Virus record (IMG/VR): IMGVR_UViG_3300020595_000062
Span: 1-45,647 of that record
Source: a virus
Reading direction: 5' to 3' (one strand)
DNA length: 45,647 nucleotides
Shown: positions 3,121-24,668 of the stretch, in pieces
Numbering within the stretch: position 1 is the first letter of the stretch
Layout: each line of letters opens with the position of its first letter
Notes under the pieces: model-generated
Database searches by the model: none
What the model was told of the DNA's origin: nothing
Seen by the model: only the letters and a program-made list of their open reading frames with translations
Made by a program: the position numbers and the translations under genes

Positions 3121-3888
3121 TTAAATTGAATTGGGGCTATATATCATATCTTCAAACACTATCATGTCTTCTACTGCGTCCATGGTAGGATCTATCTGAT
3201 CGTCATGTTTGTGAGTCATCAACGGAGTAAATTTTCTAAATTCATCCTTGTAATCATGCACCCAATCAGCATCTAAAGGCAAGTGTATATAACCACTTGC
3301 AAAATATTTTACTACACCCATTGCGCGTAATACCTTATCTGTATTACGTTGTATAGGTTCTACGGGTATCAAATAGTCCTTCTTAATAGACTGTATTAAG
3401 CTAGATCCAGAACTTTTGTCCTCAATTTTAATAACTTGAGAACCTCTCGGTTTGAACTGAGTGGGTTTATGCTTATTCCAAAACTCTACCATCATAGACT
3501 CTAATTCTGGAGCTTCCCATTTACCTCGTACTTGATCTACCAAGAATATCCCCTTGGACATCGACCTAGCCCAAAATTGAAATACCGACCAATCATTACG
3601 TTCGGCAGTCTTCTGGGCTGTATCTCCGTATATACGCATTAAGTCTATATCAGCTGGTAGGACGTCATAATACTTCCAGTACTTATCTTTAAACATGCCG
3701 CCGCCTAGCGGACTAGGGTTTTGTTGCATCTGAGAAGAGGTAGTGTACGGATCACCTTCTTCTAAGGTACGGAACTTTTTACGGTCATGTTTAAACGGCC
3801 AGAGCATACTATCTGGGACTACTTGGTTTGGCATACGGGCAAGCATATCCATACTAAAAAGCATACTCAGAACCCCCATGCAATGCAT
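3121..3888 (-). CDS. terL: Terminase large subunit, C-terminal (nuclease) half, in the +1 frame relative to the upstream half
   Basis: Contains LWPFKHD, RIYGDTAQKTAERNDWSVFQFWA (first RNaseH-like strand with Asp), VIKIEDKSSGSSLIQ and a C-terminal DDQIDPTMDAV motif. It overlaps the ATPase half by 35 nt. Confidence 0.8.
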   Translation of the reverse strand: MHCMGVLSMLFSMDMLARMPNQVVPDSMLWPFKHDRKKFRTLEEGDPYTTSSQMQQNPSPLGGGMFKDKYWKYYDVLPADIDLMRIYGDTAQKTAERNDWSVFQFWARSMSKGIFLVDQVRGKWEAPELESMMVEFWNKHKPTQFKPRGSQVIKIEDKSSGSSLIQSIKKDYLIPVEPIQRNTDKVLRAMGVVKYFASGYIHLPLDADWVHDYKDEFRKFTPLMTHKHDDQIDPTMDAVEDMIVFEDMIYSPNSI

Positions 3889-4717
3889 CTAAAATACCAT
3901 TGAGATTTATAGGTATGCCGTGGGTGTAATCTTCAGGGTACGGCTTGGCTAATAATTCTTCACTAAAATGCGTAGGTATTACGAGGTGATGCCAAATATC
4001 ACCTGAACCACCTTTAAGTAGGAAGCCTGATAAATCATCTTCGTGAATACGCTGCATGATATTAATCATGGGTACTTCTTCTACTGCTAAACGGGAACGA
4101 TGAGTGTTGTTAAACCGATTATTAATAGCATTACGTTTTGGAGTAGAATAAGCATCGTCAGGTTTTAAAGGATCATCGTTTATGAATGCTCCTGTAAATC
4201 CAGGCTCCATTCTACCTGCTCGGAATCCTGTAATCTGCCCTCCAGATGCAGCCGCCATCATACCTCCACCTTGCTCGGTGAACCATCGTTTCTTACCTTT
4301 AGTATCGGTACGAGTTTCCATAGGCCAGAGTTCTTGAAATTCAGGGCTTTGTACTGTATCCTTAATCTTAGAAGAGTTTTCGTGGGCTAGATCACCAGAA
4401 TAAGAAGTATGTATGTATTTAGAACGAGAATTCAATGCCAAGCCACGACATATAAAATTCAGTACAGCTTGTTCTGTCTTGGTGTATCCTGGTGCTATAT
4501 TTATAATCAACCTGTTTATCTTCATATCTAAAACGGCTTGTAACACATAATCTATAGCGTAATGATGCCAATTAAGTAACATCTTATTACCTTCACGGAG
4601 CTTGAAGAAATAACGCATGAATTGCATACCGTCTTGCTCTAGCATATACTTGAGCATACGTTTCTCATTGAACGACCACTGATCTATATCGTCAGGTAAC
4701 AAGATATCAGAAGTCAT
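3854..4717 (-). CDS. terL: Terminase large subunit, N-terminal (ATPase) half
   Basis: Deviant Walker A NIAPGYTKTE, Walker B AFINDDPLKPDD and coupling motif MQRIHEDDLSGF. The track start 4744 is TTG. ATG 4717 overlaps the terS stop by 11 nt. Confidence 0.8.
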   Translation of the reverse strand: MTSDILLPDDIDQWSFNEKRMLKYMLEQDGMQFMRYFFKLREGNKMLLNWHHYAIDYVLQAVLDMKINRLIINIAPGYTKTEQAVLNFICRGLALNSRSKYIHTSYSGDLAHENSSKIKDTVQSPEFQELWPMETRTDTKGKKRWFTEQGGGMMAAASGGQITGFRAGRMEPGFTGAFINDDPLKPDDAYSTPKRNAINNRFNNTHRSRLAVEEVPMINIMQRIHEDDLSGFLLKGGSGDIWHHLVIPTHFSEELLAKPYPEDYTHGIPINLNGILDALHGGSEYAF

Positions 4718-5111
4718 CGTTGAATTTCTCTTTAAATAGCTCAATTTCTTCTTCTGTTAATGGGGCGTCAGCAGCGTTACTTCCTGCTCCTCCATCGCCT
4801 TTTATCTCTACTTGCTTGCGTTTAGCGTGTAGGTATTCAGCTAGAGTTTTAGCCGCCGACATAGACTCGCTAATAGGAACGGTATGGTATTTGTAACGAG
4901 CGGAAACGTGATCTACAATCTCAGCCCATTCTCCCTGACCAATATCGCCTCCAGTAAACGAATCTATTTCTAAGATTAATTCATAAATAGATGATAATCT
5001 GCGTGGATCTTGACCATTCATCACCGACTCTAAGAACACAAGTGGGTCTTTGGCTTCCCCCTTGTGTATGAGTTCTCTTAGGTCATCAATGGATAATGGT
5101 TTGTGTGACAT
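4707..5111 (-). CDS. terS: Terminase small subunit (putative)
   Basis: 134 aa, immediately upstream of terL and translationally coupled to it. It has the AAKTLAEYLHAKRKQVE motif typical of small terminases and an acidic C-terminus. Confidence 0.6.
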   Translation of the reverse strand: MSHKPLSIDDLRELIHKGEAKDPLVFLESVMNGQDPRRLSSIYELILEIDSFTGGDIGQGEWAEIVDHVSARYKYHTVPISESMSAAKTLAEYLHAKRKQVEIKGDGGAGSNAADAPLTEEEIELFKEKFNDDF

Positions 5112-12968: not shown

Positions 12969-12995
12969 CTTAAACAGTGAAACAGGTTGCCAGTT
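12969..12995 (+). promoter_or_regulatory. Conserved 27-nt leader motif, copy 1
   Basis: CTTAAACAGTGAAACAGGTTGCCAGTT followed directly by ATG 12996. Confidence 0.6.
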
Positions 12996-13703
12996 ATGAA
13001 TAACAAACGCTTAATTGAAAAGATGAAGAAACTCTTAGCCATGTCTGAGGGTACAGCTAACGAACACGAAGCAATGGTAGCGACTAAACAGTTACATGCC
13101 ATGTTAGCTAAACATAATGTCTCTATGTCTGATCTTAACGAACAAGAAGATATAGGTGAAGTTTATTTCACTTCTACATCACGCCCTTGGAAACGCTTAG
13201 TTGCAATGTACGTAGCTAAGTTGTATTTCTGTGAGTTCTATTATATCCATGGTGGTAGTAGAACTAAATTTGTATTAGTAGGTACGGAAGCAAATCGTAC
13301 TTTCAGCACCCACATATTACAAATGATTTTCAAAACTGTGGAACGAGAATCTCGCAAACAATCTAAAGCTCACTACGGTAAAGAAGTTTGCTCTTTTGTG
13401 AATTCATTTTGGACAGGAGCTTCCAATCGTATAAGAGTAAGATGTGAAGAAATGATAGGTAACGCTAAAGAAGGCTCAATGGAAGATGAGGAAGGGAATA
13501 AGCTACCAGCGTTGCTTTCTGTTTACGAACAAAACGAAATACTGATAAACGATTTCATGAGTAATATGAGTTTGTCCACCAAGCCATTGAGAACCAAAGT
13601 AACGGATAAAGCTGGGCATGTTGCAGGAATTAAAACAGGTAACGAAGTCCAGTTATCACGTACCATACAAGGTAGCTCTTCACCTAAGTTGTTGGGGAAT
13701 TGA
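12996..13703 (+). CDS. DUF2786-like protein
   Basis: The N-terminus KMKKLLAMSEGTANEHEAMVATKQLHAMLAKHNVS fits the DUF2786 consensus as I remember it. The track start 12987 is TTG, so ATG 12996 is preferred. Confidence 0.65.
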   Translation: MNNKRLIEKMKKLLAMSEGTANEHEAMVATKQLHAMLAKHNVSMSDLNEQEDIGEVYFTSTSRPWKRLVAMYVAKLYFCEFYYIHGGSRTKFVLVGTEANRTFSTHILQMIFKTVERESRKQSKAHYGKEVCSFVNSFWTGASNRIRVRCEEMIGNAKEGSMEDEEGNKLPALLSVYEQNEILINDFMSNMSLSTKPLRTKVTDKAGHVAGIKTGNEVQLSRTIQGSSSPKLLGN

Positions 13704-13980: not shown

Positions 13981-14251
13981 TTCTGACTGGGCTAAATGGC
14001 TACACGCCGATGGTGATCAGCTTGAGTTAACGCCTAGCCCTACCCAAACAAGAGACACTTACTACAAAGAATATCTGTATAAAGAAGGAAGAGGAACACC
14101 TAAAGCTCAATTCTTTATGACTAGCGAGGGCATAAACGGTAGTTACGGTTTCTGGTGTCCTCGTTCAGCTATTATCAGTGATAATGGTAATACGGTAGAG
14201 ATATCTAACTGGTGCAAACTAACCGAAATTGAATATAATAGAGGAAATTAA
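13967..14251 (+). CDS. Hypothetical protein
   Basis: 94-aa ORF with a GGAG SD 8 nt upstream of the ATG. Confidence 0.6.
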   Translation: MNMTDSDWAKWLHADGDQLELTPSPTQTRDTYYKEYLYKEGRGTPKAQFFMTSEGINGSYGFWCPRSAIISDNGNTVEISNWCKLTEIEYNRGN

Positions 14252-14255
14252 TATA

Positions 14256-15539
14256 ATGTCAAATCTAATAGAAGATAAGTTCCATGCTCGTATAAGCCCT
14301 TCAGCTAGTAAACGCTGGATGACTTGTCCTGGTTCTGCTCGCTTAATAGAAGCTCTAAACATTCCTAACAAGCCAAGCAAGTTCGCAGCTGAGGGTACAG
14401 TGGCTCACGAAGTTCATGAGAAATGTTTATTCAACAATCAAGAAGCTAATGAATATATCGGTCAGACTTTTGAATCAGATGGTTTCAAATTCAAAGTAAC
14501 TCAAGAAATGGCAGACGCAGTTCAAGAAAGTCTAGATTATATCCGTGAACGCATCACTGAAGCCGAAGACATGGGTATGCGAGTAGAAGTCTTAGTGGAA
14601 GTATGGGCAGATCTAAAATACTTAGGTATAGAAGGGTTAGATGGAGGAACTAGTGATGTAGTGTTGCTATTCTGGGAAGACGAATCTCTTATAGAAATAG
14701 AAGTAGTAGATTACAAGCACGGAGCAGGGGTAGCAGTAGATGTTACCAATAATACTCAGGCTCTACATTACGGCTTAGGAGTAGTAATGAATCCTGAGTT
14801 CAATGGTCAAGGTATTCCAGAAGGGATTACTATTACTATTAGTCAACCTCGTGCTCATCACCCAGAAGGTCGTATACGGTCTTGGAATGTTAGTAAAGAA
14901 TACGTATTAAATTGGGAAGAGGAGGAATTGATACCCAAAGCTAAACGCTGTCATGATGAAGACGCTCCATTCGTACCTAGCGATGACGGTTGTCGTTTTT
15001 GTGATGCAGCAGGTCAATGTCCCGCATTATTCAAGCGCACTCAAGAAGTAGCTATGATGGATTTCGATGACGTAGAAGCTAAATTACCTGTAATAGAAAC
15101 CTTAACTCCAGATCAGAAGAGATTCATAATGGATCACGCTGGAGCTTTACGCTCATTTATAGTAGCTGTAGAAAACCAAATAAAATTAGAAGTAGATAGC
15201 GGTTCTCAAGATTACTCAGGTCATTACAAGTTAGTACGTAAGACTACCCAGCGTAAATTGACTGAGGACGCACTTGATCCCGATTTCTCCCCTCTATTAG
15301 ATTACATAGAGGAAGATGACATGTATACTCGTAAACCCAAAGGTATAGGTGAGTTGGAAAAATCAATTAAAGAAAAATTGAAATCTCAAGGCGTTAAAGG
15401 TTTCGTCAAGAAATCTAAAGAAATTATGGAAGAAGTAACTACCAAGCCTACTGGTGAATTGGTTATAGCTCCCGAATCCGACAAGCGTATGGGTGTTCAG
15501 CCTTCTATTGTCGGTGATTTTACAAATCTGGACTCTTAA
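14256..15539 (+). CDS. PD-(D/E)XK (Cas4/RecB-like) nuclease, DUF2800-like
   Basis: N-terminal HARISPSASKRWMTCPGS, DVVLL...VVDYKHG (D..D/ExK) and a C-terminal Cys cluster CRFCDAAGQC. It lies upstream of the DUF2815-type SSB, as in the conserved phage replication module. Confidence 0.8.
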   Translation: MSNLIEDKFHARISPSASKRWMTCPGSARLIEALNIPNKPSKFAAEGTVAHEVHEKCLFNNQEANEYIGQTFESDGFKFKVTQEMADAVQESLDYIRERITEAEDMGMRVEVLVEVWADLKYLGIEGLDGGTSDVVLLFWEDESLIEIEVVDYKHGAGVAVDVTNNTQALHYGLGVVMNPEFNGQGIPEGITITISQPRAHHPEGRIRSWNVSKEYVLNWEEEELIPKAKRCHDEDAPFVPSDDGCRFCDAAGQCPALFKRTQEVAMMDFDDVEAKLPVIETLTPDQKRFIMDHAGALRSFIVAVENQIKLEVDSGSQDYSGHYKLVRKTTQRKLTEDALDPDFSPLLDYIEEDDMYTRKPKGIGELEKSIKEKLKSQGVKGFVKKSKEIMEEVTTKPTGELVIAPESDKRMGVQPSIVGDFTNLDS

Positions 15540-15543
15540 TAAA

Positions 15544-15570
15544 CTTAAACAGAAAACAGGAAACAGTCTA
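15544..15570 (+). promoter_or_regulatory. Conserved 27-nt leader motif, copy 2
   Basis: CTTAAACAGAAAACAGGAAACAGTCTA followed directly by ATG 15571. Confidence 0.6.
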
Positions 15571-16140
15571 ATGGCTAAAATTATTTTACAAAATGTTCGT
15601 TGTAGTTATGTGTTCGTTAATGAGCGTCGCAAAAAAGACAATGGTGAGGAAGGTTCTTACTCAGTTCAAATCTTGTTGCGTAAAGACGACCCTCAAGTCA
15701 AGAAACTTAAAACGATGATTGACGAAACTCTCACTGCTAATTTTGGTGCTGACGCTACTAAGAAACGTGGTAAGTTTAAACTACCTATTCGTGATCCCGA
15801 ATCTGAACACGAAGATAAAGATGGTGAAGAATACGAAGGTGTGTACTTCATGAATGCTAATTCTTCTAAGAAGAAACCCGGAATTGTGAATCGCAATAAC
15901 GAACCTGCCGACCAAGACGACATTGAAGAATACTGCTATAGCGGTGCGTATTTCCATGTGTCAGTTAATGTTTATTCTTTCCCTGCTAAAGATGGCGGTA
16001 AACCAGGAATTGCGCTAGGACTTAACAATGTTATGCTACGCAAGAAAGGCGAACGTTTAGACGGTTCTGTAGCGGCGACTAGCGAGTTTTCAGATTTTGC
16101 TGAAGGAAGCGACTCTAGTTCAGAAGATGATGATTGGTAG
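15571..16140 (+). CDS. ssDNA-binding protein, DUF2815-like
   Basis: MAKIILQNVRCSYVFV is the typical N-terminus, and the tail SDSSSEDDDW is acidic. The track start 15493 is GTG and lies inside the upstream gene. Confidence 0.75.
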   Translation: MAKIILQNVRCSYVFVNERRKKDNGEEGSYSVQILLRKDDPQVKKLKTMIDETLTANFGADATKKRGKFKLPIRDPESEHEDKDGEEYEGVYFMNANSSKKKPGIVNRNNEPADQDDIEEYCYSGAYFHVSVNVYSFPAKDGGKPGIALGLNNVMLRKKGERLDGSVAATSEFSDFAEGSDSSSEDDDW

Positions 16141-16158: not shown

Positions 16159-16186
16159 GGTGGTTTCGGCCACCTCGATTTATTTT
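16159..16186 (+). terminator. Possible intrinsic terminator after the SSB gene
   Basis: GGTGG-tttcgg-CCACC is followed by tcGATTTATTTTA. The stem is short at 5 bp. Confidence 0.3.
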
Positions 16187-16271: not shown

Positions 16272-16775
16272 ATGAAAACATTAACAACTTATACCAAAAA
16301 CCAACTTGAAGAAATGAAGTTAACTGAGATAACTGATATCAATAACAGCTTCGCAAATGAGTTAGGTCTTAAAATTACTAAGCGTTTCGCATCTAAAGAT
16401 AAAGCTGTAAGCCGAGTAATGCAAAACCAAGATTTGTATTCCGAAGAATTTGCTGAGGAGCACAAAAAGAAAGCGACCAAGGCTGTAGCTAAGATTGAAA
16501 CAGCTAAGAAAAACGAACAAGCCAAAGAAGATAAAATTCACAACCTTACCAAGTCGGCCAAAGTTATCAGCGTACTGGATAAAGGTAAGGAGTGTTCTAT
16601 TGAGAATTCTTTGCATCACGGAATTTCTATTGGGGAAGATACCGTTGAAAAATTAGTAAATTACATAGTCAACAACCATAGACGCCCTCGTAGCGGCTTA
16701 GGTGTTGACGCTCAATATGCGACTCACAATATTAAGTGGTTCGTTAACAAAGGTCACTTGAAGTTGGAGGGGTAA
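16272..16775 (+). CDS. Lys-rich protein, paralogue A (shares a C-terminal domain with 16777..17403)
   Basis: C-terminal VEKLVNYIVNNHRRPRSGLGVDAQYATHNIKWFVNKGHLKLEG, with a central KKKATKAVAKIETAKKNEQAKEDK tract. Confidence 0.7.
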   Translation: MKTLTTYTKNQLEEMKLTEITDINNSFANELGLKITKRFASKDKAVSRVMQNQDLYSEEFAEEHKKKATKAVAKIETAKKNEQAKEDKIHNLTKSAKVISVLDKGKECSIENSLHHGISIGEDTVEKLVNYIVNNHRRPRSGLGVDAQYATHNIKWFVNKGHLKLEG

Positions 16776-16776
16776 T

Positions 16777-17403
16777 ATGTTTTACGCAATAGATTTTGAT
16801 AGTCGTAAGGTGGAATCAAAAAGTGAAAATGAAGAGCTGTTAGCAGCTTATATATTGGACAATGATTTGTCTCAAGCAGTAGCTCTTATAGATAGTGCTG
16901 ACGAATTATGTTTGCAATTCTCACTTAATGAAATGAACGAGTTGCATAAAAATATCTGCGAAACAGATGTAGCTTTGATAGATGACGAAGAATTATTAGC
17001 TGATGTAGTGTGGGAAATATTAGAAGAATCTAAAGATAACTTCCCAGATTTCACTCCCACACTTGGCAAGAAATTAATTAAGAATACTAATAAAGAAACA
17101 TCTCCCAAGCCTAATAAGGCTAAGAAACCTAGTGAACCTAAGACTTCTAGTCCTCGTGTTAATTTAAACAGAGATGATCCTATTTGCGTCATAGAAGGCA
17201 AAGGAAAATCAGGTAGTATATTAAGTACTATCTTAACCGCTATTGATGATGACTTGTGCGAAACAGTAGGTGAGGTGTTAGATTACATAACAACTAATCA
17301 CGTTATACCCAAAACTGGTGAATTAGCTGATGTTAAATTCGCTGAGCATAATATTAAATATTTTGTTAAGAAGGGTAATATAGCACTAGAGGAAGGATTA
17401 TGA
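16777..17403 (+). CDS. Lys/Pro-rich protein, paralogue B
   Basis: C-terminal VGEVLDYITTNHVIPKTGELADVKFAEHNIKYFVKKGNIALEEG, with a central NKETSPKPNKAKKPSEPKTSSPR tract. GGAGGGG SD present. Confidence 0.7.
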   Translation: MFYAIDFDSRKVESKSENEELLAAYILDNDLSQAVALIDSADELCLQFSLNEMNELHKNICETDVALIDDEELLADVVWEILEESKDNFPDFTPTLGKKLIKNTNKETSPKPNKAKKPSEPKTSSPRVNLNRDDPICVIEGKGKSGSILSTILTAIDDDLCETVGEVLDYITTNHVIPKTGELADVKFAEHNIKYFVKKGNIALEEGL

Positions 17404-18647
17404 ATATATTAATAACTCACTTCCAAATACAAGATTGGGGAGGCATAGTAAACTATAGCGAGTTTATGGCTCGTGGTTTAAAATCATTAGGTCACACCGT
17501 AAAGAGCGTCATGTTAAAGAATAAAGGCGTAACAGGTACACCCAAAACAAAAGATCGCAGTGACCAGCAAGGATGGGAATTCGGTGAAGGATTGGGATTA
17601 TGGATGCACCAGAAAAATGGATGGGATGGGATGTACCAACTCAATTATTACAACGATAGATTGACTTGGGAAGAGTGGAGTTCTGAATTCGACCTAATAC
17701 TCCATCATATATCTGTGCCCACTTGCTCCAAGGCGACCAAAGGAGATGATCAGTGGATTAAAATATTCAATCAATCCTTTGCTAGTCAGTTGGCGGTAGT
17801 ACATGATGGCAACATGAAAAAACTCTATCCTCACATATTGAATATATGCGATAAGATAGACGGTGTTGTATGTGTTCACGATGCAGCTTTTCATTCTTGT
17901 GAAGAACTACCTATTCGTAGAGCATTCATACCTAATCCTCATGAACAGAAAGACTGGATAAAAAGCATCTCTAATCGTGATGATGCTTTTGTTTCTTTAC
18001 AAACATTTAAGAGATGGAAACGTGTTGACGATCTAATACGAGCTATACCTTATATGGATGATTTTTCGGATAAATATATCTGCGGAGGTGGTATAGAATA
18101 TCATTATATGACTTCCAAAGAAAAAGTCAAACCCTGTTATTTAGAGGAAGACGGCTCCCGTATATGGGAAAACGCTTTATCTAGTGGAATGGAATATTTA
18201 GGCTACGTAACCACCAGTAAGAGAGATGAACTATTAGCCGATGTAAAACTATTGATAGATCCTAGTTGGTCTTTGAATTATTCTAAATTAGGTTGCCACT
18301 TCAATAGAGTTATGGTGGAAGCAATGGCTCAAGGTTGTATTCCTGTTTGCACCGATTTAGCCATGAAGAATAGTTTCTTTTTCAAAGCAGGTATAAATTA
18401 TATAGAAATACCTTATAATAGTAGTCCTCAGGAATATGCTAAAATAATAGATGAAGCTATGAGTAATGAAGAGCTACTAAGTAATATTCAAGAAAACAAT
18501 TTAAAATTAATGGAAGCGTTCGACAAAGTTAACGTAGCCAAAGCTATTATAGAATTTAGTGAAAGTAATGGCGGTTCAATAGGTATCCCATCTGAAAAAT
18601 TAATAGCAGATGCGGCTCGTAAAATGGAACACTTTGATGACTTCTAA
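17400..18647 (+). CDS. GT-B fold glycosyltransferase (group 1 / GT4-like)
   Basis: C-terminal EX7E-type motif HFNRVMVEAMAQGCIPVCT. 415 aa, with an ATGA overlap onto the upstream gene. Confidence 0.75.
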   Translation: MNILITHFQIQDWGGIVNYSEFMARGLKSLGHTVKSVMLKNKGVTGTPKTKDRSDQQGWEFGEGLGLWMHQKNGWDGMYQLNYYNDRLTWEEWSSEFDLILHHISVPTCSKATKGDDQWIKIFNQSFASQLAVVHDGNMKKLYPHILNICDKIDGVVCVHDAAFHSCEELPIRRAFIPNPHEQKDWIKSISNRDDAFVSLQTFKRWKRVDDLIRAIPYMDDFSDKYICGGGIEYHYMTSKEKVKPCYLEEDGSRIWENALSSGMEYLGYVTTSKRDELLADVKLLIDPSWSLNYSKLGCHFNRVMVEAMAQGCIPVCTDLAMKNSFFFKAGINYIEIPYNSSPQEYAKIIDEAMSNEELLSNIQENNLKLMEAFDKVNVAKAIIEFSESNGGSIGIPSEKLIADAARKMEHFDDF

Positions 18648-19503
18648 TATTAATAACGATTTGTTAGATTCTTTTTATTGGTGGATAGAAGAGAGACACA
18701 AGATATATCTCCGCAGATTAGCAGGTGAACCTAAGCCGTGGACACAAGATACTATCATGCAGGATTATAAGTTCTGCAATGTGTTTCGTGAACTAGATAC
18801 CACTACTATCTGGATCAAGGAAAACATTAGAGATCGTTGGGCTGACCATCCTTATTTGTGGTTCGCTTTATGTTTAGCTAGGAGAATAAACCTAATAGAT
18901 ACTATGGTGGATTTGGACGATTTACTGGTTAATTGGGATGCAGAAAAAGCTCATTCTATATTGAACAATCGTAAAGATTCAGACAAGCGTATATACAACG
19001 GAGCTTACATGATCACCACTGGTGGTCGTAAAGTTCCGAAGAACGAAGACACTTGCTGGAATATATTAGAACCTTTATGGGCTAAGCGAGAAGAAATAAC
19101 AAATACTCTAAAATACATAAACAGTATAGAAAGTGCGTTTTATATTTTTGCTAACGGTCATGTCGGATATAGTAATTTCTTAGCTTACGAGATAGTGACC
19201 GATATGAGACACACTAAATATCTGAGAGAAGCTACCGACATTTACACATGGGCTAATGCAGGACCTGGAGCGGTTAGAGGTTTGAATCGCTTACATAATA
19301 GGCCGTTAAACAGTAAAATAAAATCTTGCCAAACCAATGCAGAAATGCAACAATTACTCATAGACAGTGACTTATATCTCGATAATGGTTTCCCAGTTTT
19401 GGAAATGAGAGATATAGAACATTCTCTTTGTGAGTTTGATAAATATCAACGAGTAGGAACCGACAAAAGTTTCTTACGTCAAAAATACAACGGAAGAGGT
19501 TAA
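18637..19503 (+). CDS. aGPT-Pplase-like DNA base hypermodification protein (putative)
   Basis: ERHKIYLRRLAGEPKPWTQDTIMQDYKFCNVFRELDTTT matches my recollection of the alpha-glutamyl/putrescinyl thymine pyrophosphorylase family signature (PWT.D.I...Y.FCNV.RE.D..T). The start is ATG 18637 or ATG 18610. Confidence 0.55.
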   Translation: MTSNINNDLLDSFYWWIEERHKIYLRRLAGEPKPWTQDTIMQDYKFCNVFRELDTTTIWIKENIRDRWADHPYLWFALCLARRINLIDTMVDLDDLLVNWDAEKAHSILNNRKDSDKRIYNGAYMITTGGRKVPKNEDTCWNILEPLWAKREEITNTLKYINSIESAFYIFANGHVGYSNFLAYEIVTDMRHTKYLREATDIYTWANAGPGAVRGLNRLHNRPLNSKIKSCQTNAEMQQLLIDSDLYLDNGFPVLEMRDIEHSLCEFDKYQRVGTDKSFLRQKYNGRG

Positions 19504-19504
19504 T

Positions 19505-20515
19505 ATGTTAGTGATTAATGCAGATAACGTGAATGATGCTTTAACTCAAGGTATCGCTATTATGTGTGAACACGGAGAACCCTTAAATAGCCGAGCAGGG
19601 CAAACTCTAGAAATACCCATGCCAGTAGCTACGGTCTACCGCAAACCTTGGGAGAGAGTACTAATTAGTAGGGTTAGGGATGCTAATCCTTTCTTCCATC
19701 TTATGGAATCTTTATGGATTTTGGCTGGTCGCAAAGATGTTAAGTTCTTAAGTGAATTTAACAAACGTATGAGCGAATATAGCGACGATGGTAAGGTGTT
19801 CAACGCTCCATACGGATACCGATTACGCAATGGCATAGGTTACGACAACGATCAACTAGCTACCGTAATACGTACTCTCAAAAACGACCCTAACAGTCGC
19901 CAAGCTGTTTGTCAAATATGGGATGAAGAAGATTTACATAGACAGACTAAAGATAAAGCCTGTAATATGCAAATCGTATTTCGCATTAGATCTGGTTACT
20001 TGTATATGACCGTTAATAATAGATCCAATGATATGGTCTGGGGAGCTTACGGAGCTAACGTAGTTCAGTTCAGCATGATACAAGAATACGTAGCTGCTCA
20101 TTTAGGATTACCATTAGGTACTTATACGCAAGTCAGTAACTCATTCCACGTATACACTGAAGGTCCCGGAGGTGAAGTTTGGGACAGATTGATAAACAAC
20201 TTCGAGTTGCATGAATCGCCTTACGACAATGTAAATAATGCTACTTATATGGTTGAAGAAGACATGGATGATTTTGAATATGACTTAAAACAATTCTTCA
20301 ATATTTACGATGAATTTGGATTAAAAGAATTAGGAGAAATGAATTGTTGGAAGTCCCGTTATTTCAATGGTCTCATTTTACCTGTACTATGTTGTTATTT
20401 AGTACATAAATCTAGCGGTGCAAATCATGCTATTAACTATTTAACCCATATTGTAGCTGACGATTGGCATTTTGCTTGCCGAGATTGGTTACTTAACCGA
20501 GTGAAATCATTATGA
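19505..20515 (+). CDS. ThyA-family enzyme, likely a dUMP hydroxymethylase (a plain thymidylate synthase is not excluded)
   Basis: FFHLMESLWILAGRKDV (compare ELLWFLRG), the catalytic-Cys context DKACNMQIVFRI, and NNRSNDMVWGAYGANVVQF (compare RSxDxxLGxPFN). It has a ~70-aa C-terminal extension relative to ThyA. Confidence 0.65.
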   Translation: MLVINADNVNDALTQGIAIMCEHGEPLNSRAGQTLEIPMPVATVYRKPWERVLISRVRDANPFFHLMESLWILAGRKDVKFLSEFNKRMSEYSDDGKVFNAPYGYRLRNGIGYDNDQLATVIRTLKNDPNSRQAVCQIWDEEDLHRQTKDKACNMQIVFRIRSGYLYMTVNNRSNDMVWGAYGANVVQFSMIQEYVAAHLGLPLGTYTQVSNSFHVYTEGPGGEVWDRLINNFELHESPYDNVNNATYMVEEDMDDFEYDLKQFFNIYDEFGLKELGEMNCWKSRYFNGLILPVLCCYLVHKSSGANHAINYLTHIVADDWHFACRDWLLNRVKSL

Positions 20516-20997
20516 ATATTAAAAACATATTAAATAGTGGGGGAGTGGTTAGATTCCATCAGCAAGTAGGAGTCACTAAACAACAGAACTCAGAACATCA
20601 ATGGGGAGTCGCGCTAATAGTTCAACACCTTAACCCTAATTGTTCTAAAGATTTAATATTAGCGGCGTTAACTCACGATGCAGCTGAATCTTACACTGGA
20701 GATAGCCCTTTTCCAGTTAAGAAAGATCACCCAGAATTAAGTGCTATTTTACGCAAACTAGAAATGCAATGGGAAAAAGAAAACAATATTAATTTTAATC
20801 TAACTGATGAAGAAAAAGTAACATTAAAACTAGCTGACTCATTAGAGGGTATGTGGTATTGTTTGCAAAGATATAAGTGTGGAGAGAAGAACGCACTAAC
20901 ACCTTTTACCGCATGGAGAAAATTTATATGCCGCAATTTCACTTTGGATAACACGTATCTATTCCATTCATTAATCCAAGAAATGGAGGAATTATAA
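20512..20997 (+). CDS. HD-domain phosphohydrolase (YfbR-like 5'-deoxynucleotidase)
   Basis: SEHQWGVALIV...LTHDAAESYTGDSPFPVKK (H...HD...D metal ligands). ATGA overlap with the upstream gene. Confidence 0.75.
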   Translation: MNIKNILNSGGVVRFHQQVGVTKQQNSEHQWGVALIVQHLNPNCSKDLILAALTHDAAESYTGDSPFPVKKDHPELSAILRKLEMQWEKENNINFNLTDEEKVTLKLADSLEGMWYCLQRYKCGEKNALTPFTAWRKFICRNFTLDNTYLFHSLIQEMEEL

Positions 20998-21404
20998 TGG
21001 AAGCTAACGATTATCAAATAGGTGGGAACCATTACTCAGATACAGAAATTCAACATTGGGATTTTACTATGTTGAATCAACTGAATTATTTACTAGGTTG
21101 CGCTACCAAATACGTCATTAGATGGAAGAAGAAAAACGGAATTGAAGATTTACGCAAGGCGGTTCATTATATAGCCAAAGCTGAAGAACAATGTGCTTAC
21201 CATTATAAATTCGAGATACATAGTAAGTTGATGATTATGAACAAATCTTATATAGAATTTATAAATAGTATAGGAAATGATGAGAAAGATATAGTCATTA
21301 AAATACTTCAGAATAATCTATCTGGTGCTCAACATTCATTGGGCGAACTAATATCAGACATAGAGTTCGCTCCTGGTCGCACCTATGTAAATCCCGATCT
21401 TTGA
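20997..21404 (+). CDS. DUF3310 (SaV-like) protein
   Basis: GGNHYSDTEIQHWDF...GCATKYVIRWKKKNGIEDLRKAVHYI fits the DUF3310 consensus as I remember it. TAATG overlap with the upstream gene. Confidence 0.6.
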   Translation: MEANDYQIGGNHYSDTEIQHWDFTMLNQLNYLLGCATKYVIRWKKKNGIEDLRKAVHYIAKAEEQCAYHYKFEIHSKLMIMNKSYIEFINSIGNDEKDIVIKILQNNLSGAQHSLGELISDIEFAPGRTYVNPDL

Positions 21405-21411
21405 GGTAATT

Positions 21412-21957
21412 ATGTTATTATCATATAATAAGTTAGTAGAGCTAATAGAGTTAGGCGTGATAAATGCTCCATTAGAAAATGTGAATGGTGCTTCTATAGA
21501 CATAACTCTATCCGACACAGTAATGATAGAGGAAGTCACTCCAGCTAGAAAATGTGTGGATTTAAAAGATAAACATAATATAAAGATGCACGAGTTTATT
21601 ATGGATAAGGGTTCTTGTTTTCATCTGCATCCTAATCAATTCTTATTAGCTTCTTCCAATGAAGTGTTCAACCTACCTAATAACATAGCTTGTGAGTACA
21701 AGTTAAAGAGTTCCTTAGCTCGTAATGGTCTTCAGCACATGTTAGCTGGTTGGTGTGATCCAGGATGGAACGGTTCAACATTAACATTGGAATTTAAGAA
21801 TGTTACCCAATTCCACACATTGGTATTAGAACCAGGAATGAAGATAGGACAAATGGTATTCTTTGAATGCGATCCCGTACCAGAAGAGCATTCTTACGCA
21901 AGTAAGGGTCAGTATAACGGGCAGACTTCCACAACTCCTAGCAAAGGATTGAGATAA
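21412..21957 (+). CDS. dcd: dCTP deaminase (dUTPase superfamily)
   Basis: NGASIDITLSD near the N-terminus, then GWCDPGWNGSTLTLEFKNVTQF...GMKIGQMVFFE. Confidence 0.8.
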   Translation: MLLSYNKLVELIELGVINAPLENVNGASIDITLSDTVMIEEVTPARKCVDLKDKHNIKMHEFIMDKGSCFHLHPNQFLLASSNEVFNLPNNIACEYKLKSSLARNGLQHMLAGWCDPGWNGSTLTLEFKNVTQFHTLVLEPGMKIGQMVFFECDPVPEEHSYASKGQYNGQTSTTPSKGLR

Positions 21958-23870
21958 TGGATTACGAAAAAGTAGTCACTTTAGATATAGAATGTTATCA
22001 TAATTATCTGTTGGTTATGTTCCGTAAGGTAGTAGGTGGTAATATTATTTATTTTGAAAAGTTCAACGATTCAGAACTGAATATCAAAAACATATTGCAT
22101 ATCCTATCTAAATACACTTTAGTAACTTACAACGGTCTTAAGTATGATATGTGCATTTTAGAAGCCGCTACCGCAGGATTTTCTAACGCCTCTATAAAGA
22201 AGATAAACGATTCTATTATACCCAGCGATGAGGATAAGAAAGCTGGTATAATAGGATTACAACCTTGGCAAGTGAGAAAACAATTCGGTATAGCAGCGTT
22301 GAAGGTAGACCAAATAGACATAATGGAAGTCGCTCCCTTACAAGCTACCTTGAAGATATACGGTGGTCGTATCCATTGTCCTAAAATGCAAGACTTACCG
22401 ATAGAACCTAGCGCAACAATTGAAGAACATCAGTTGCCAGATATGCGTAAATATTGTGGTAATGATAACGAAGTAACCGCTCTACTGTTAATGCACATGG
22501 AGCAGGAATTAAAACTACGTCAATCTATGAGCGATGAGTACGGAGTAGATTTGAGATCTAAGTCTGACGCTCAAATAGCCGAGTCAGTTATTAAATGTGA
22601 AATGGAGAGCAGATACGGTATCACACCTAAAAGAACAAAAGTAGATACTGGTACTCAATATTACTTTCAATGTCCTGACAATATAGTTTTTCAAACGGAA
22701 TTACTAAAAGATGTTAAAAGGCAATATACTTCTTTACCTTTCACGGTAGGTAAAAGTGGTCACGTAGAGTTCAATTTTGAAATGAACGATACTGATAGAT
22801 TCAAATCAGGGAAGCGCAAAGGTGAATTACCAGATAAGAAAAGTAAATTGCAATTCACAATCGGTTCTACCAAATATACAGTAGGGACAGGAGGCATACA
22901 TAGTTGTGAGAAATCTATTCGTCACACCAATGAGCATCATATATTACGGGAGTGGGATGTTGCTACATTCTATCCTCGTATAATTCTCAATAATCGTTTA
23001 TTCCCTAAACATATTGGAGAACCTTTCTTAGATATTTACGAATCTATTGTAAATAGAAGGTTGGAGGCCAAAACAGAAGCTAAGAATGATAATAACACTC
23101 AAGCTGAAAAAGAAGATTACGCTGTTGTGAACGAAAGCCTGAAAATTACTATCAATGGTTCTTTCGGTAAGTTCGGTAGTAAGTGGTCGTTCATGTATTC
23201 CCCAGACCTAATGATGCAAGTTACTGTAACAGGCCAGTTATCGTTATTAATGTTGATAGAGAGATTAGAGTTGGCAGGTATATCGGTAGTCAGTGCTAAC
23301 ACTGACGGTATAGTAGTTAAGATACCTCCGGAAAAAGAATCCTTAGCTAACGAGATAGTAGAAGACTGGGAATTTGAAACTAATTACGACATGGAAGCTA
23401 ATGAATATTCCAGCTTAAATAGTAGAGATGTAAATAATTATATAGCAGTGACTACTAAGGGTAAGTTCAAAGGTAAAGGAGCGTACTCGGATCAAAGAGA
23501 ACATTTTTACAGTTTGAGAAGTAACCCTGCTAATGATATTTGCACGGAAGCTGTTAAGGCGTTTTTGAAAGACGGAACCTTACCTATAGAAACTATAATG
23601 GCGTGTAAAGACGTAACTAAATTTCTAACTTTGAGAACTGTAAACGGTGGAGCAGTATACGAAGGTCAGATTATCGGCAAGGCTATCCGCTGGTATTACG
23701 GCTGTTACGAGCTAGATATGATACGTTATAATACCAATGGTAATAAAGTTCCTCGCTCAGACGGAGCAGTACCTCTAATGGATTTACCAGAAAAATTTCC
23801 AATAGATATGGATTACGATTGGTACGTAAACGAAGCACACGACATTCTCAAGAAAATAGGTTACAAATAA
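21957..23870 (+). CDS. DNA polymerase with 3'-5' exonuclease domain and family-B-like motifs
   Basis: Exo I LDIECY, Exo II YNGLKYDMCIL and Exo III YCGNDNEVT. Motif A DVATFYPRII, motif B KITINGSFGKFGS and motif C SANTDGIVV. Confidence 0.8.
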   Translation: MDYEKVVTLDIECYHNYLLVMFRKVVGGNIIYFEKFNDSELNIKNILHILSKYTLVTYNGLKYDMCILEAATAGFSNASIKKINDSIIPSDEDKKAGIIGLQPWQVRKQFGIAALKVDQIDIMEVAPLQATLKIYGGRIHCPKMQDLPIEPSATIEEHQLPDMRKYCGNDNEVTALLLMHMEQELKLRQSMSDEYGVDLRSKSDAQIAESVIKCEMESRYGITPKRTKVDTGTQYYFQCPDNIVFQTELLKDVKRQYTSLPFTVGKSGHVEFNFEMNDTDRFKSGKRKGELPDKKSKLQFTIGSTKYTVGTGGIHSCEKSIRHTNEHHILREWDVATFYPRIILNNRLFPKHIGEPFLDIYESIVNRRLEAKTEAKNDNNTQAEKEDYAVVNESLKITINGSFGKFGSKWSFMYSPDLMMQVTVTGQLSLLMLIERLELAGISVVSANTDGIVVKIPPEKESLANEIVEDWEFETNYDMEANEYSSLNSRDVNNYIAVTTKGKFKGKGAYSDQREHFYSLRSNPANDICTEAVKAFLKDGTLPIETIMACKDVTKFLTLRTVNGGAVYEGQIIGKAIRWYYGCYELDMIRYNTNGNKVPRSDGAVPLMDLPEKFPIDMDYDWYVNEAHDILKKIGYK

Positions 23871-24326: not shown

Positions 24327-24668
24327 ATGTCTACTTCAGAGTTCTTAACTCGCGCTACTAAAACATTAGCTAAAAAGTTAGAAATAAAAGAGGTAGACAT
24401 TGAAGATAAGTATTGCAAGTACGCTAAATCTAAACGCTGCGTAGCTGTAAAACTTATCTTCCTAAATAAAAAGGGCTTTCCCGATAGGACTACACTATGT
24501 CCTAAAGGTAGAGTCCTTTTTATTGAGTTCAAGAAAAAAGGTAAAACTCAATCTCCAGTACAAATAGTCGTACAGAAATTACTGGAGTCTTTAGGCTTTG
24601 AATATTATGTATGTGACGAAATAGGTCAGGCCGAAAAACACTTAGATGAGTTCTTAGAATGGCAATAA
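24327..24668 (+). CDS. VRR-NUC domain nuclease
   Basis: GFPDRTTLCPKGRVLFIEFKKKGKTQSPVQ (D...ExK...Q). Confidence 0.75.
   Translation: MSTSEFLTRATKTLAKKLEIKEVDIEDKYCKYAKSKRCVAVKLIFLNKKGFPDRTTLCPKGRVLFIEFKKKGKTQSPVQIVVQKLLESLGFEYYVCDEIGQAEKHLDEFLEWQ

Follow-up and report, generated by a model that had tools for sequence, protein, structure and literature searches.

A phage operon with a glycosyltransferase in the slot of the 5-hydroxymethyldeoxyuridine DNA kinase suggests kinase-free glycosylation of 5-hydroxymethyluracil in DNA

The known thymidine hypermodifications of DNA pass through a phosphorylated intermediate and involve amino-acid transfer. Here we describe a phage operon whose genes point to a base that would be glycosylated without such an intermediate. 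It lies at 16272-23870 of a 45,647-nucleotide stretch of viral DNA, positions 1 to 45,647 of the IMG/VR record IMGVR_UViG_3300020595_000062; this whole stretch is called the window below. The closest described systems are the clusters of M6/Yuavirus, PaMx11, ViI, PhiW-14, and SP10 (Lee et al. 2018; 2021, PMC8989533), which share with the window the same core in the same order: hel (a clade-1 member of the alpha-glutamyl/putrescinyl-thymine pyrophosphorylase [aGPT-Pplase] superfamily), a dUMP hydroxymethylase, an HD protein, a DUF3310 protein, and the polymerase; a C-deaminase is likewise shared. In M6, gp51, which belongs to clade 2 of the superfamily, is a glycine:DNA transferase, and gp54 is the 5-hydroxymethyldeoxyuridine (5-hmdU) DNA kinase; N-alpha-glycinylthymidine was still formed in reactions lacking gp52, gp53, and gp55, and in SP10 the kinase domain of gp186 was active alone, with the C terminus deleted (PMC8989533). 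Unlike the M6-type clusters, the window has no P-loop kinase, no clade-2 transferase, and none of the tailoring enzymes dependent on pyridoxal phosphate (PLP), radical S-adenosylmethionine (rSAM), or flavin adenine dinucleotide (FAD), but encodes a glycosyltransferase (GT) of the GT-B fold instead; its predicted product is a sugar adduct, whereas that of the M6-type clusters is derived from an amino acid.

The genes of the operon, all on the plus strand, follow each other in the order paralogue 1 (16272-16775, 167 aa), paralogue 2 (16777-17403, 208 aa), a glycosyltransferase that has a GT-B fold, is of the retaining GT4 type, and is proposed here to act on 5-hydroxymethyluracil (hmU) in DNA (17400-18647; PF00534), hel, the clade-1 aGPT-Pplase or HMUDK_hel protein homologous to M6 gp55 (18637-19503; PF18723), a ThyA-superfamily enzyme predicted to be a dUMP hydroxymethylase (19505-20515; Thymidylat_synt, 1e-22), a YfbR-like HD 5'-deoxynucleotidase (20512-20997; PF12917, 1.5e-9), a DUF3310 protein (20997-21404; PF11753, 1.1e-8), a dCTP deaminase (21412-21957; PF22769, 4.9e-33), and a divergent family B-like replicative DNA polymerase (21957-23870; phrog_1252, 6.5e-181, with a weak match to PF00136). 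The gaps are 7 nt or less throughout. Read from the sequence, ATGA overlaps are found at 17400, where the stop of paralogue 2 overlaps the GT start, and at 20512, and TAATG overlaps at 20997 and 21957; the GT and hel genes overlap by 11 nt, and the dCTP deaminase and polymerase genes by 1 nt. An earlier annotation of this DNA, made without database searches (the sequence-only reading), had described a six-gene cluster of the thymidine-hypermodification type directly upstream of the polymerase. All the open reading frames (ORFs) it named were present where it had placed them, and its overlaps and domain calls proved correct on rereading of the sequence and comparison with Pfam, PHROG, and NCBIfam. 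The type of cluster was borne out by synteny with the M6/Yuavirus module: the order in Yuavirus PAC9 is PLP enzyme, rSAM enzyme, P-loop kinase, hel, Nmad, ThyA, HD, DUF3310, polymerase, and in the window the GT-B gene occupies the slot of the P-loop 5-hmdU DNA kinase. This arrangement is kept in the related IMG/VR contigs L003/L005, L004, and L007. The sister contig L006, which has the same backbone and the same paralogues, carries two TAGT-family (PF20691) genes in place of the GT-B gene.

We then searched the window for the enzymes of the known pathway, using profiles of 14 5-hmdU DNA kinase (5-HMUDK) and 11 clade-2 homologues against all six-frame, stop-to-stop segments of at least 40 aa with filters off. 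Neither a 5-hmdU DNA kinase (best E=1.1) nor a clade-2 aGPT-Pplase, or amino-acid:DNA transferase (AADT; best E=1.3), was found in any of the six frames. A six-frame scan for Walker A motifs returned only the primase-helicase, SNF2 carrying DPGLGKTS, just as the sequence-only reading had it. Scanned with Pfam, the remaining ORFs of the early region and part of the structural module showed a single-stranded DNA-binding protein (SSB), a PD-(D/E)XK nuclease, the primase-helicase, a ligase, an exonuclease, the portal, the terminase, and Mu-F, and no kinase and no PLP, rSAM, or FAD enzyme; a TET_JBP domain was absent from the 29 ORFs scanned with Pfam, most structural-module ORFs lying outside that scan. 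The Walker A scan and the two profiles brought up no hidden kinase in the window, and a P-loop kinase fold, which would have made the pathway canonical, was found in none of the neighboring ORFs scanned. The absence of the kinase noted earlier was in this way confirmed, but the description of the operon as the canonical pathway minus its kinase does not hold: since both profiles find nothing, both known effector enzymes are absent and not the kinase alone.

To see how the GT and the kinase are distributed, we annotated 41 hel-containing loci with local profiles, counting as a GT either a member of the window GT-B family or a TAGT. A GT with neither kinase nor clade-2 enzyme was found in 19 of the 41 loci, a count that is partly biased because 9 of the 19 are either the window itself or loci retrieved by means of the GT. 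A kinase was present in 17, accompanied by a clade-2 enzyme and no GT in 14 and standing alone in three (L001, L022, and L032, the last two being short or truncated by a contig end). Neither type was recognized in five, and the kinase and the GT occurred together in none (0/41). Among the 30 loci fetched with hel alone, 12 had a GT, 13 a kinase, and 5 neither; the kinase-free, GT-based branch thus appears to be roughly as frequent as the one with the kinase. It follows from this split that hel and ThyA act as a conserved core, with either the GT or the kinase-plus-AADT pair as its effector arm.

The partnership of the GT with this core also extends well beyond the relatives of the window. Members of the GT family at 49%, 43%, and 40% identity were found in unrelated backbones, namely a 79-kb contig and phages of 57-61 kb with PolA, archaeo-eukaryotic primase (AEP), and UvrD, and all of them still adjoin HMUDK_hel and Thymidylat_synt, with the order altered (e.g., hel-SNase-GT-ThyA). 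In all, the GT lay beside hel and ThyA in 7/7 distinct contexts examined. Inherited synteny does not account for a GT-hel-ThyA triad that is kept through changes of backbone and shuffling of gene order; the triad is a functional module. The gene between hel and the GT in the PolA-backbone loci is staphylococcal-nuclease-like (SNase-like; L038, 7570-8001; L039, 3422-3856). TAGT genes, whose relatives glycosylate 5-hydroxymethylcytosine (5hmC) in phage DNA, stand beside hel also in the more distant kinase-less loci L012, L013, L014, and L029. L013 (5507-8008) combines the TAGT with a HAD phosphatase and a sugar-1-phosphate nucleotidyltransferase, L014 (5157-7980) has a GT-B-like ORF, a radical-SAM/SPASM protein, and the TAGT, and L011 (8202-9200) has a radical-SAM-like ORF and no recognized GT or kinase. 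The GT-B-like proteins of L025 and L014 were considered as relatives of the window GT and rejected (hhalign probability, 3.5%), and were not counted as GTs.

The strict split between GT and kinase, together with the TAGT genes in place of the GT in L006, makes glycosylated hmU the best reading of the operon, as had been suggested from the sequence alone. In this reading, to which we give somewhat better than even confidence, the DNA would carry O-glycosylated hmU, a base-J-like modification, probably alpha-linked and reached without a phosphorylated intermediate, as read from gene context, residue signatures, and folds. The operon would replace thymine by hmU before replication and then glycosylate the base within DNA. 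The dCTP deaminase would yield dUTP, with dUMP arising through a host dUTPase or the deaminase itself, and the ThyA homologue would hydroxymethylate dUMP to 5-hmdUMP while the HD nucleotidase depleted the rival dTMP. Host kinases, possibly assisted by the DUF3310 protein, would raise hmdUMP to hmdUTP for incorporation by the phage polymerase, which must then accept hmdUTP. The GT would next move a sugar from a nucleoside diphosphate sugar onto the 5-CH2OH group of hmU in duplex DNA, giving a probably alpha-configured O-glycosyl-hmU, and hel, a conserved partner, would act on this base too in its flipped-out state. From the gene content, synteny, residue signatures, folds, and co-occurrence established here we infer every enzymatic step, the use of DNA as acceptor by the GT, the identity of the sugar, and its anomeric form. 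The alpha linkage, unlike the linkage of base J, is to be expected because the fold of the GT is of the retaining GT4 type.

Several observations weigh against this proposal, besides the partial bias in the number of GT-type loci. The EX7E-like motif that had been assigned to the GT holds for its second Glu (E307), which is invariant, but not for its first, since the position 8 residues upstream is Cys or Ala. The GT had no sequence-level relative among solved structures in a PDB sequence search, and tblastn found no homologue of it in 50,697 cultured-phage records. GT4 enzymes mostly act on lipids, small molecules, and wall polymers, the top PDB matches of the GT being of that sort, and the case for DNA as its acceptor is one of context and fold. 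The proposal also leaves the role of hel unexplained, as simple glycosylation of the kind seen in T4 would not need it. Finally, related contigs exceed the window in length by about 0.3-0.8 kb.

The place of hel is at the center of the first alternative. The window protein scored 172 bits against PF18723 HMUDK_hel (2.3e-50; cutoff, 25), covering profile positions 3-276 of 281; PF18723 is the former aGPT-Pplase clade 1, and both names appear in the GenBank annotation of the Yuavirus homologue. It shares about 41% identity with its M6/Yuavirus counterpart and matches gp55 by position in the Yuavirus locus, as the gene right after the kinase. The sequence-only reading, which had taken the motif PWTQDTIMQDYKFCNVFRELDTTT as the signature of the aGPT-Pplase family, was therefore right about the superfamily, but the member is the clade-1 homologue of gp55 and not the catalytic clade 2. 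That motif contains the family-invariant residues W35, F46, N48, R51, D54, and T57, and the family has some 20-35 invariant residues overall, including Glu261, Cys265, Glu266, Asp268, and Lys269 in IEHSLCEFDKY; the Glu261-x3-Cys265 dyad was invariant in 37 sequences. Alignment of hel with clade 2 by hhalign (E=1.4e-4, 98 columns, probability of 52%) set IEHSLCEF against VETILCKW, a motif whose Glu and Cys, when mutated, abolished activity in M6 gp51 and ViI gp247. The AlphaFold2 (AF2) model of hel (pLDDT, 93.4) had a single meaningful PDB neighbor, MjOgg (3FHF; Foldseek probability of 0.99, TMt of 0.50, E=0.053), which is a helix-hairpin-helix (HhH) 8-oxoguanine DNA glycosylase; AGOG came further down the match list. 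An HhH DNA-glycosylase-like fold is the one predicted for aGPT-Pplases. Given the conserved dyad aligned with clade 2 and the DNA-glycosylase-like model, hel probably flips out bases and has an active site based on a thiol, which would make it more than a passive helical domain.

The hel family is very large: clustering at 90% identity gives at least 1,952 clusters, and 5,527 representatives are left at 50% identity. Nearly all members stand alone. In ten long representatives examined for fusions, the sole further informative domain was one HhH-GPD fragment, and none had a kinase, GT, TAGT, or Walker A motif. The fragment (PF00730, 2.1e-7) is at the N terminus of the 420-aa metagenomic homologue P0307 and agrees with the glycosylase-like fold. 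Among cultured phages, hel is found in M6-like, PaMx11-like, Bordetella, PhiW-14, and SP10-like phages and in a few uncharacterized ones; RHph_TM26 is of the kinase type.

These properties give some room to the possibility that glycosylation is itself the activating step. The GT would then replace the kinase, the sugar would serve as the leaving group on 5-CH2OH, and the Cys/Glu dyad of hel would form an exocyclic methylene, after which hel would transfer another nucleophile or reduce some sites to thymine, so that the final base would not be a simple glycoside. In favor of this are the dyad, whose counterpart is essential in M6 gp51 and ViI gp247, the many further invariant residues of hel, the base-flipping, glycosylase-like fold that the model predicts, and the pairing of hel with every O-derivatizing class (kinase, TAGT, and GT-B). 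The M6 homologue leaves space for such an activity as well: gp55, a superfamily member without a demonstrated function, was dispensable for glycine transfer in vitro. On chemical grounds, however, a glycoside should leave far less readily than phosphate, the window ORFs scanned showed no enzymes for donor formation or tailoring (PLP, rSAM, FAD), and L006, L013, and L014, which have two GTs or carry sugar-nucleotide genes, look like glycan-building pathways and not like activation steps. We consider sugar activation possible but unlikely. A more general form, in which hel is a Cys-dependent enzyme acting on O-derivatized hydroxymethylpyrimidines in DNA, with sugar instead of phosphate activating 5-CH2OH or with hel converting some sites to another base such as thymine, strikes us as rather improbable. 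If sugar activation by the GT and hel did occur, it would be a new activation route to an unknown thymine derivative, and a universal partner of these pathways, with its 5,527 representative clusters, would have an undiscovered catalytic function. The protein that Pfam calls a kinase helical domain, being stand-alone and abundant, keeping a catalytic dyad, and pairing with kinases or GTs, in any case poses a well-defined functional question.

Returning to O-glycosylated hmU, the second alternative concerns the acceptor of the GT. The protein matched Glycos_transf_1 (PF00534) at 3.9e-9, with 36.7 bits against a gathering cutoff of 26.4, and its AF2 model (pLDDT, 92.3) has the two-Rossmann GT-B fold with retaining GT4 enzymes nearest. 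A Foldseek search of the PDB gave 348 matches at E of 1e-3 or less, among them HepE (E=1.8e-14), BshA, TarM, and MshA. The T4 alpha-glucosyltransferase had a query-normalized TM-score of 0.63 to the model, the top value among the matches listed, and one of its PDB entries in that list was solved with HMU-containing DNA. Among viral models (BFVD), the SP-15 GT ranked second, and proteins annotated as DNA alpha-glucosyltransferases ranked fifth and eighth. These neighbors of the modeled fold fit DNA as the acceptor but do not prove it. The GT had 274 homologues in metagenomes, mostly on phage-sized contigs.

The GT might instead act on the host envelope, a virion protein, or a metabolite, in which case the DNA would hold plain hmU or a product of hel. 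Its Pfam and JGI names, group 1 or cell-wall-type glycosyltransferase, would suit such a role, as would HepE, BshA, TarM, and MshA as its best PDB matches, and most phage GT contigs have no neighboring base-modification enzyme (Pyle et al.). On the other hand, the gene is translationally coupled within an operon of nucleotide metabolism, lies beside hel and ThyA in all seven contexts across unrelated backbones, is replaced by TAGT genes in the same slot, and is mutually exclusive with the DNA kinase, and we judge a target other than DNA improbable.

The third alternative concerns the ThyA homologue, which we examined for the base it would make. Its best PDB match was the MilA hydroxymethylase (2e-24), true thymidylate synthases (TS) following at 6e-14 or weaker. 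In the ThyA superfamily, N177 specifies dUMP and Asp at this position dCMP, L143 keeps water out of TS, hydroxymethylases having Asp or Glu there, and D169N marks the 5-hydroxy-dCMP synthases (PMC13326640). The window enzyme has Asp150 (equivalent to L143), Cys153, Asp176 (D169), and Asn185 (N177), identical to SPO1 gp29, the annotated dUMP hydroxymethylase (3.4e-73 against the ThyA profile), and to the Yuavirus enzyme; the Asn that the sequence-only reading had taken to favor dUMP is thus where it should be, and the signature of 5-hydroxy-dCMP synthases (D169N plus N177D) is absent, Asp176 and Asn185 being kept. The same residues recur in all hel-adjacent homologues that cover the active site, in kinase-type and GT-type loci, with four exceptions. 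In these (the IMG/VR contigs L023, 1228-3151; L024, 6504-8876; L026, 2824-8792; and L031, 7127-8825), the ThyA differs only in having Asp at position 177, and hel and a TAGT adjoin it, from which it appears that the hel family occurs in hmC-type contexts also. Taken with the residues, the match to MilA predicts that the window enzyme makes 5-hmdUMP. That the operon merely supplies dTTP, with a divergent TS and the dCTP deaminase serving canonical DNA, is very improbable: Pfam and PHROG do label the ORF a thymidylate synthase, but it falls far below every TS equivalog cutoff of NCBIfam (84.6 versus 174.55 and 70.7 versus 327), has Asp for Leu at 143 and SEYSDDG in place of the Trp80/Trp83 motif IWxEWAD of TS, bears the signature of the SPO1 dUMP hydroxymethylase, and is closely tied to hel; the cultured phages listed above as having hel are hypermodifying or uncharacterized, and not of the SPO1 type.

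The dCTP deaminase (TIGR02274, 116.8 bits versus an NCBIfam equivalog cutoff of 92.8) would supply dUTP and dUMP. The HD protein scored below the NCBIfam YfbR equivalog cutoff; its gene is kept after ThyA in nearly all loci, and it would clear dTMP or other deoxynucleoside monophosphates from the pool. DUF3310 genes come after ThyA and HD in nearly all hel loci. The T7 nucleotide kinase gp1.7, as annotated, has DUF3310 at residues 122-184 (4.5e-23) as its sole Pfam domain (L035, 267-857), and a role at the nucleotide level is therefore possible for the window protein, which may act, for example, in hmdUMP phosphorylation and is a candidate kinase or accessory protein. To our knowledge, T7 gp1.7 has no Walker motif. 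The two proteins have only the DUF3310 domain in common, and the BLASTP match between them (E=0.038 over 18 residues) was not significant. The DUF3310 protein, which had been suggested earlier as an unrecognized component of the pathway, was rejected as a replacement for the DNA kinase, since it occurs together with 5-HMUDK in the M6-like, Sonora, and RHph_TM26 loci.

The same suggestion had been made for the paralogues at 16272-17403, which turned out to have no match in Pfam, PHROG, or NCBIfam and no Walker A motif or P-loop. They share a C-terminal domain of about 75 aa and are kept upstream of the module in L003, L006, and L007, and an iterative search with them stayed among close relatives. 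A similar C-terminal motif was seen in proteins at the equivalent place upstream of hel in L011, L012, L013, L025, and L041; hhalign of the paralogues with position-equivalent proteins of distant loci gave a probability of 29%, which leaves homology unsupported.

Among cultured phages, the Alphaproteobacteria phage PhiJL001 (AY576273) resembles the window in having a hel module without a kinase in the 13-kb stretch examined. The module consists of gp19 (hel), gp22 (TAGT, 2.7e-53, annotated as a glucosyl transferase), gp23 (Nmad5), gp24 (ThyA, annotated as similar to the SPO1 dUMP hydroxymethylase), gp25 (HD), gp26 (DUF3310), and gp28 (PolA). It differs from the window in its GT, a GT-A fold TAGT (PF20691), in its family A polymerase, and in its backbone. 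A literature search that did not include Lohr et al. 2005 found no report of PhiJL001 DNA chemistry. Phage glycosyltransferases associated with TET/5mYOX enzymes (Burke 2021; Pyle 2023 preprint, published 2024) likewise perform post-replicative O-glycosylation of a 5-hydroxymethylpyrimidine, with a GT-A or GT-B fold, but there 5hmC is made from 5-methylcytosine by a dioxygenase, whereas in the window the hydroxymethyl base would come from dUMP at the nucleotide level. A clade-1 aGPT-Pplase partner always accompanies the window-type GT, while the Pyle preprint mentions neither HMUDK nor Pplase; about 28% of the GT-B contigs in metaviromes neighbor a ThyS (Pyle et al.). The architecture is thus not unique, given hel-TAGT-ThyA without a kinase in PhiJL001 and the reported co-occurrence of GT and ThyS.

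Base J is, like the predicted product of the window, an O-glycosylated hmU in DNA, but there JBP dioxygenases and the GT-A enzyme JGT convert T that is already in DNA, in contrast to the ThyA-type hydroxymethylase and GT4-like retaining GT-B enzyme of the window. The T-even hydroxymethylcytosine (hmC) system with the T4 alpha-glucosyltransferase (AGT) shares with it the GT-B fold (the TM-score of 0.63 given above), a hydroxymethylpyrimidine made before replication by a ThyA homologue, and subsequent glycosylation of DNA. AGT, however, has no sequence-level similarity to the window GT, the T4 base is derived from C and that of the window from U (Asn185), and T4 has no hel-type partner. SPO1, whose DNA contains plain hmU, has the same subtype of dUMP hydroxymethylase with identical diagnostic residues, and in a profile control it showed no full-length hel, GT, TAGT, kinase, or clade-2 enzyme. 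Its sole match to the hel profile was marginal (E=0.005, 12.3 bits) and probably due to chance; the 110-aa protein concerned, gp23.1 (L046, 2136-2543), adjoins gp22.1, annotated as a possible HMdUMP kinase. The oligosaccharide-thymidines of SP-15, YerA41, and Carin-5 were set aside because their chemistry, which involves a pentyl linker and phosphate, is of another class.

Our literature search, in which Iyer et al. 2013 was not included, found no demonstration of O-glycosylated hmU in phage DNA with a ThyA-type hydroxymethylase, nor any characterization of the window GT-B family and its fixed partnership with hel. If the proposed glycosylation is real, phage biology would gain a base-J-like modification and the enzymes would be new tools with which to tag hmU in DNA; it would also bear on the resistance of such phages to restriction and CRISPR and on the sequencing of their genomes. 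The kinase-free GT branch looks common in marine phages.

As to the limits of the operon and the window, a terminator-like hairpin on the plus strand (16159-16174) follows the SSB gene and precedes a 131-nt gap upstream of 16272, and it is the probable upstream boundary of the operon. The hairpin is a consensus match only, and because the promoter and terminator site counts in the region do not exceed those of shuffled controls, this evidence for the boundary is weak. The window appears to hold nearly all of a phage genome of about 46 kb: an identical hel protein is found on contigs as long as 45,972 bp, and another contig, whose proteins are 96% identical, has 46,428 bp. Base composition switches with the coding strand: the replication block, at about 12-26 kb, is on the plus strand and has minus-strand blocks on either side. 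On the minus strand, the terminase large subunit is seemingly split into overlapping ORFs at 3121-3888 and 3854-4744; only the downstream terminase ORF matches Terminase_6C, the upstream one of 296 aa having no Pfam match, and the split could stem from a frameshift or an error in sequencing, or else an ATPase domain may have escaped detection. The replication block also codes for a DUF2786/DUF7168 protein (12987-13703), a DUF2800 PD-(D/E)XK nuclease (14229-15539), an Enc34-type SSB (15493-16140), and a weak VRR-NUC match (24327-24668), a recombination set that M6-like and NP1-like siphoviruses also have.

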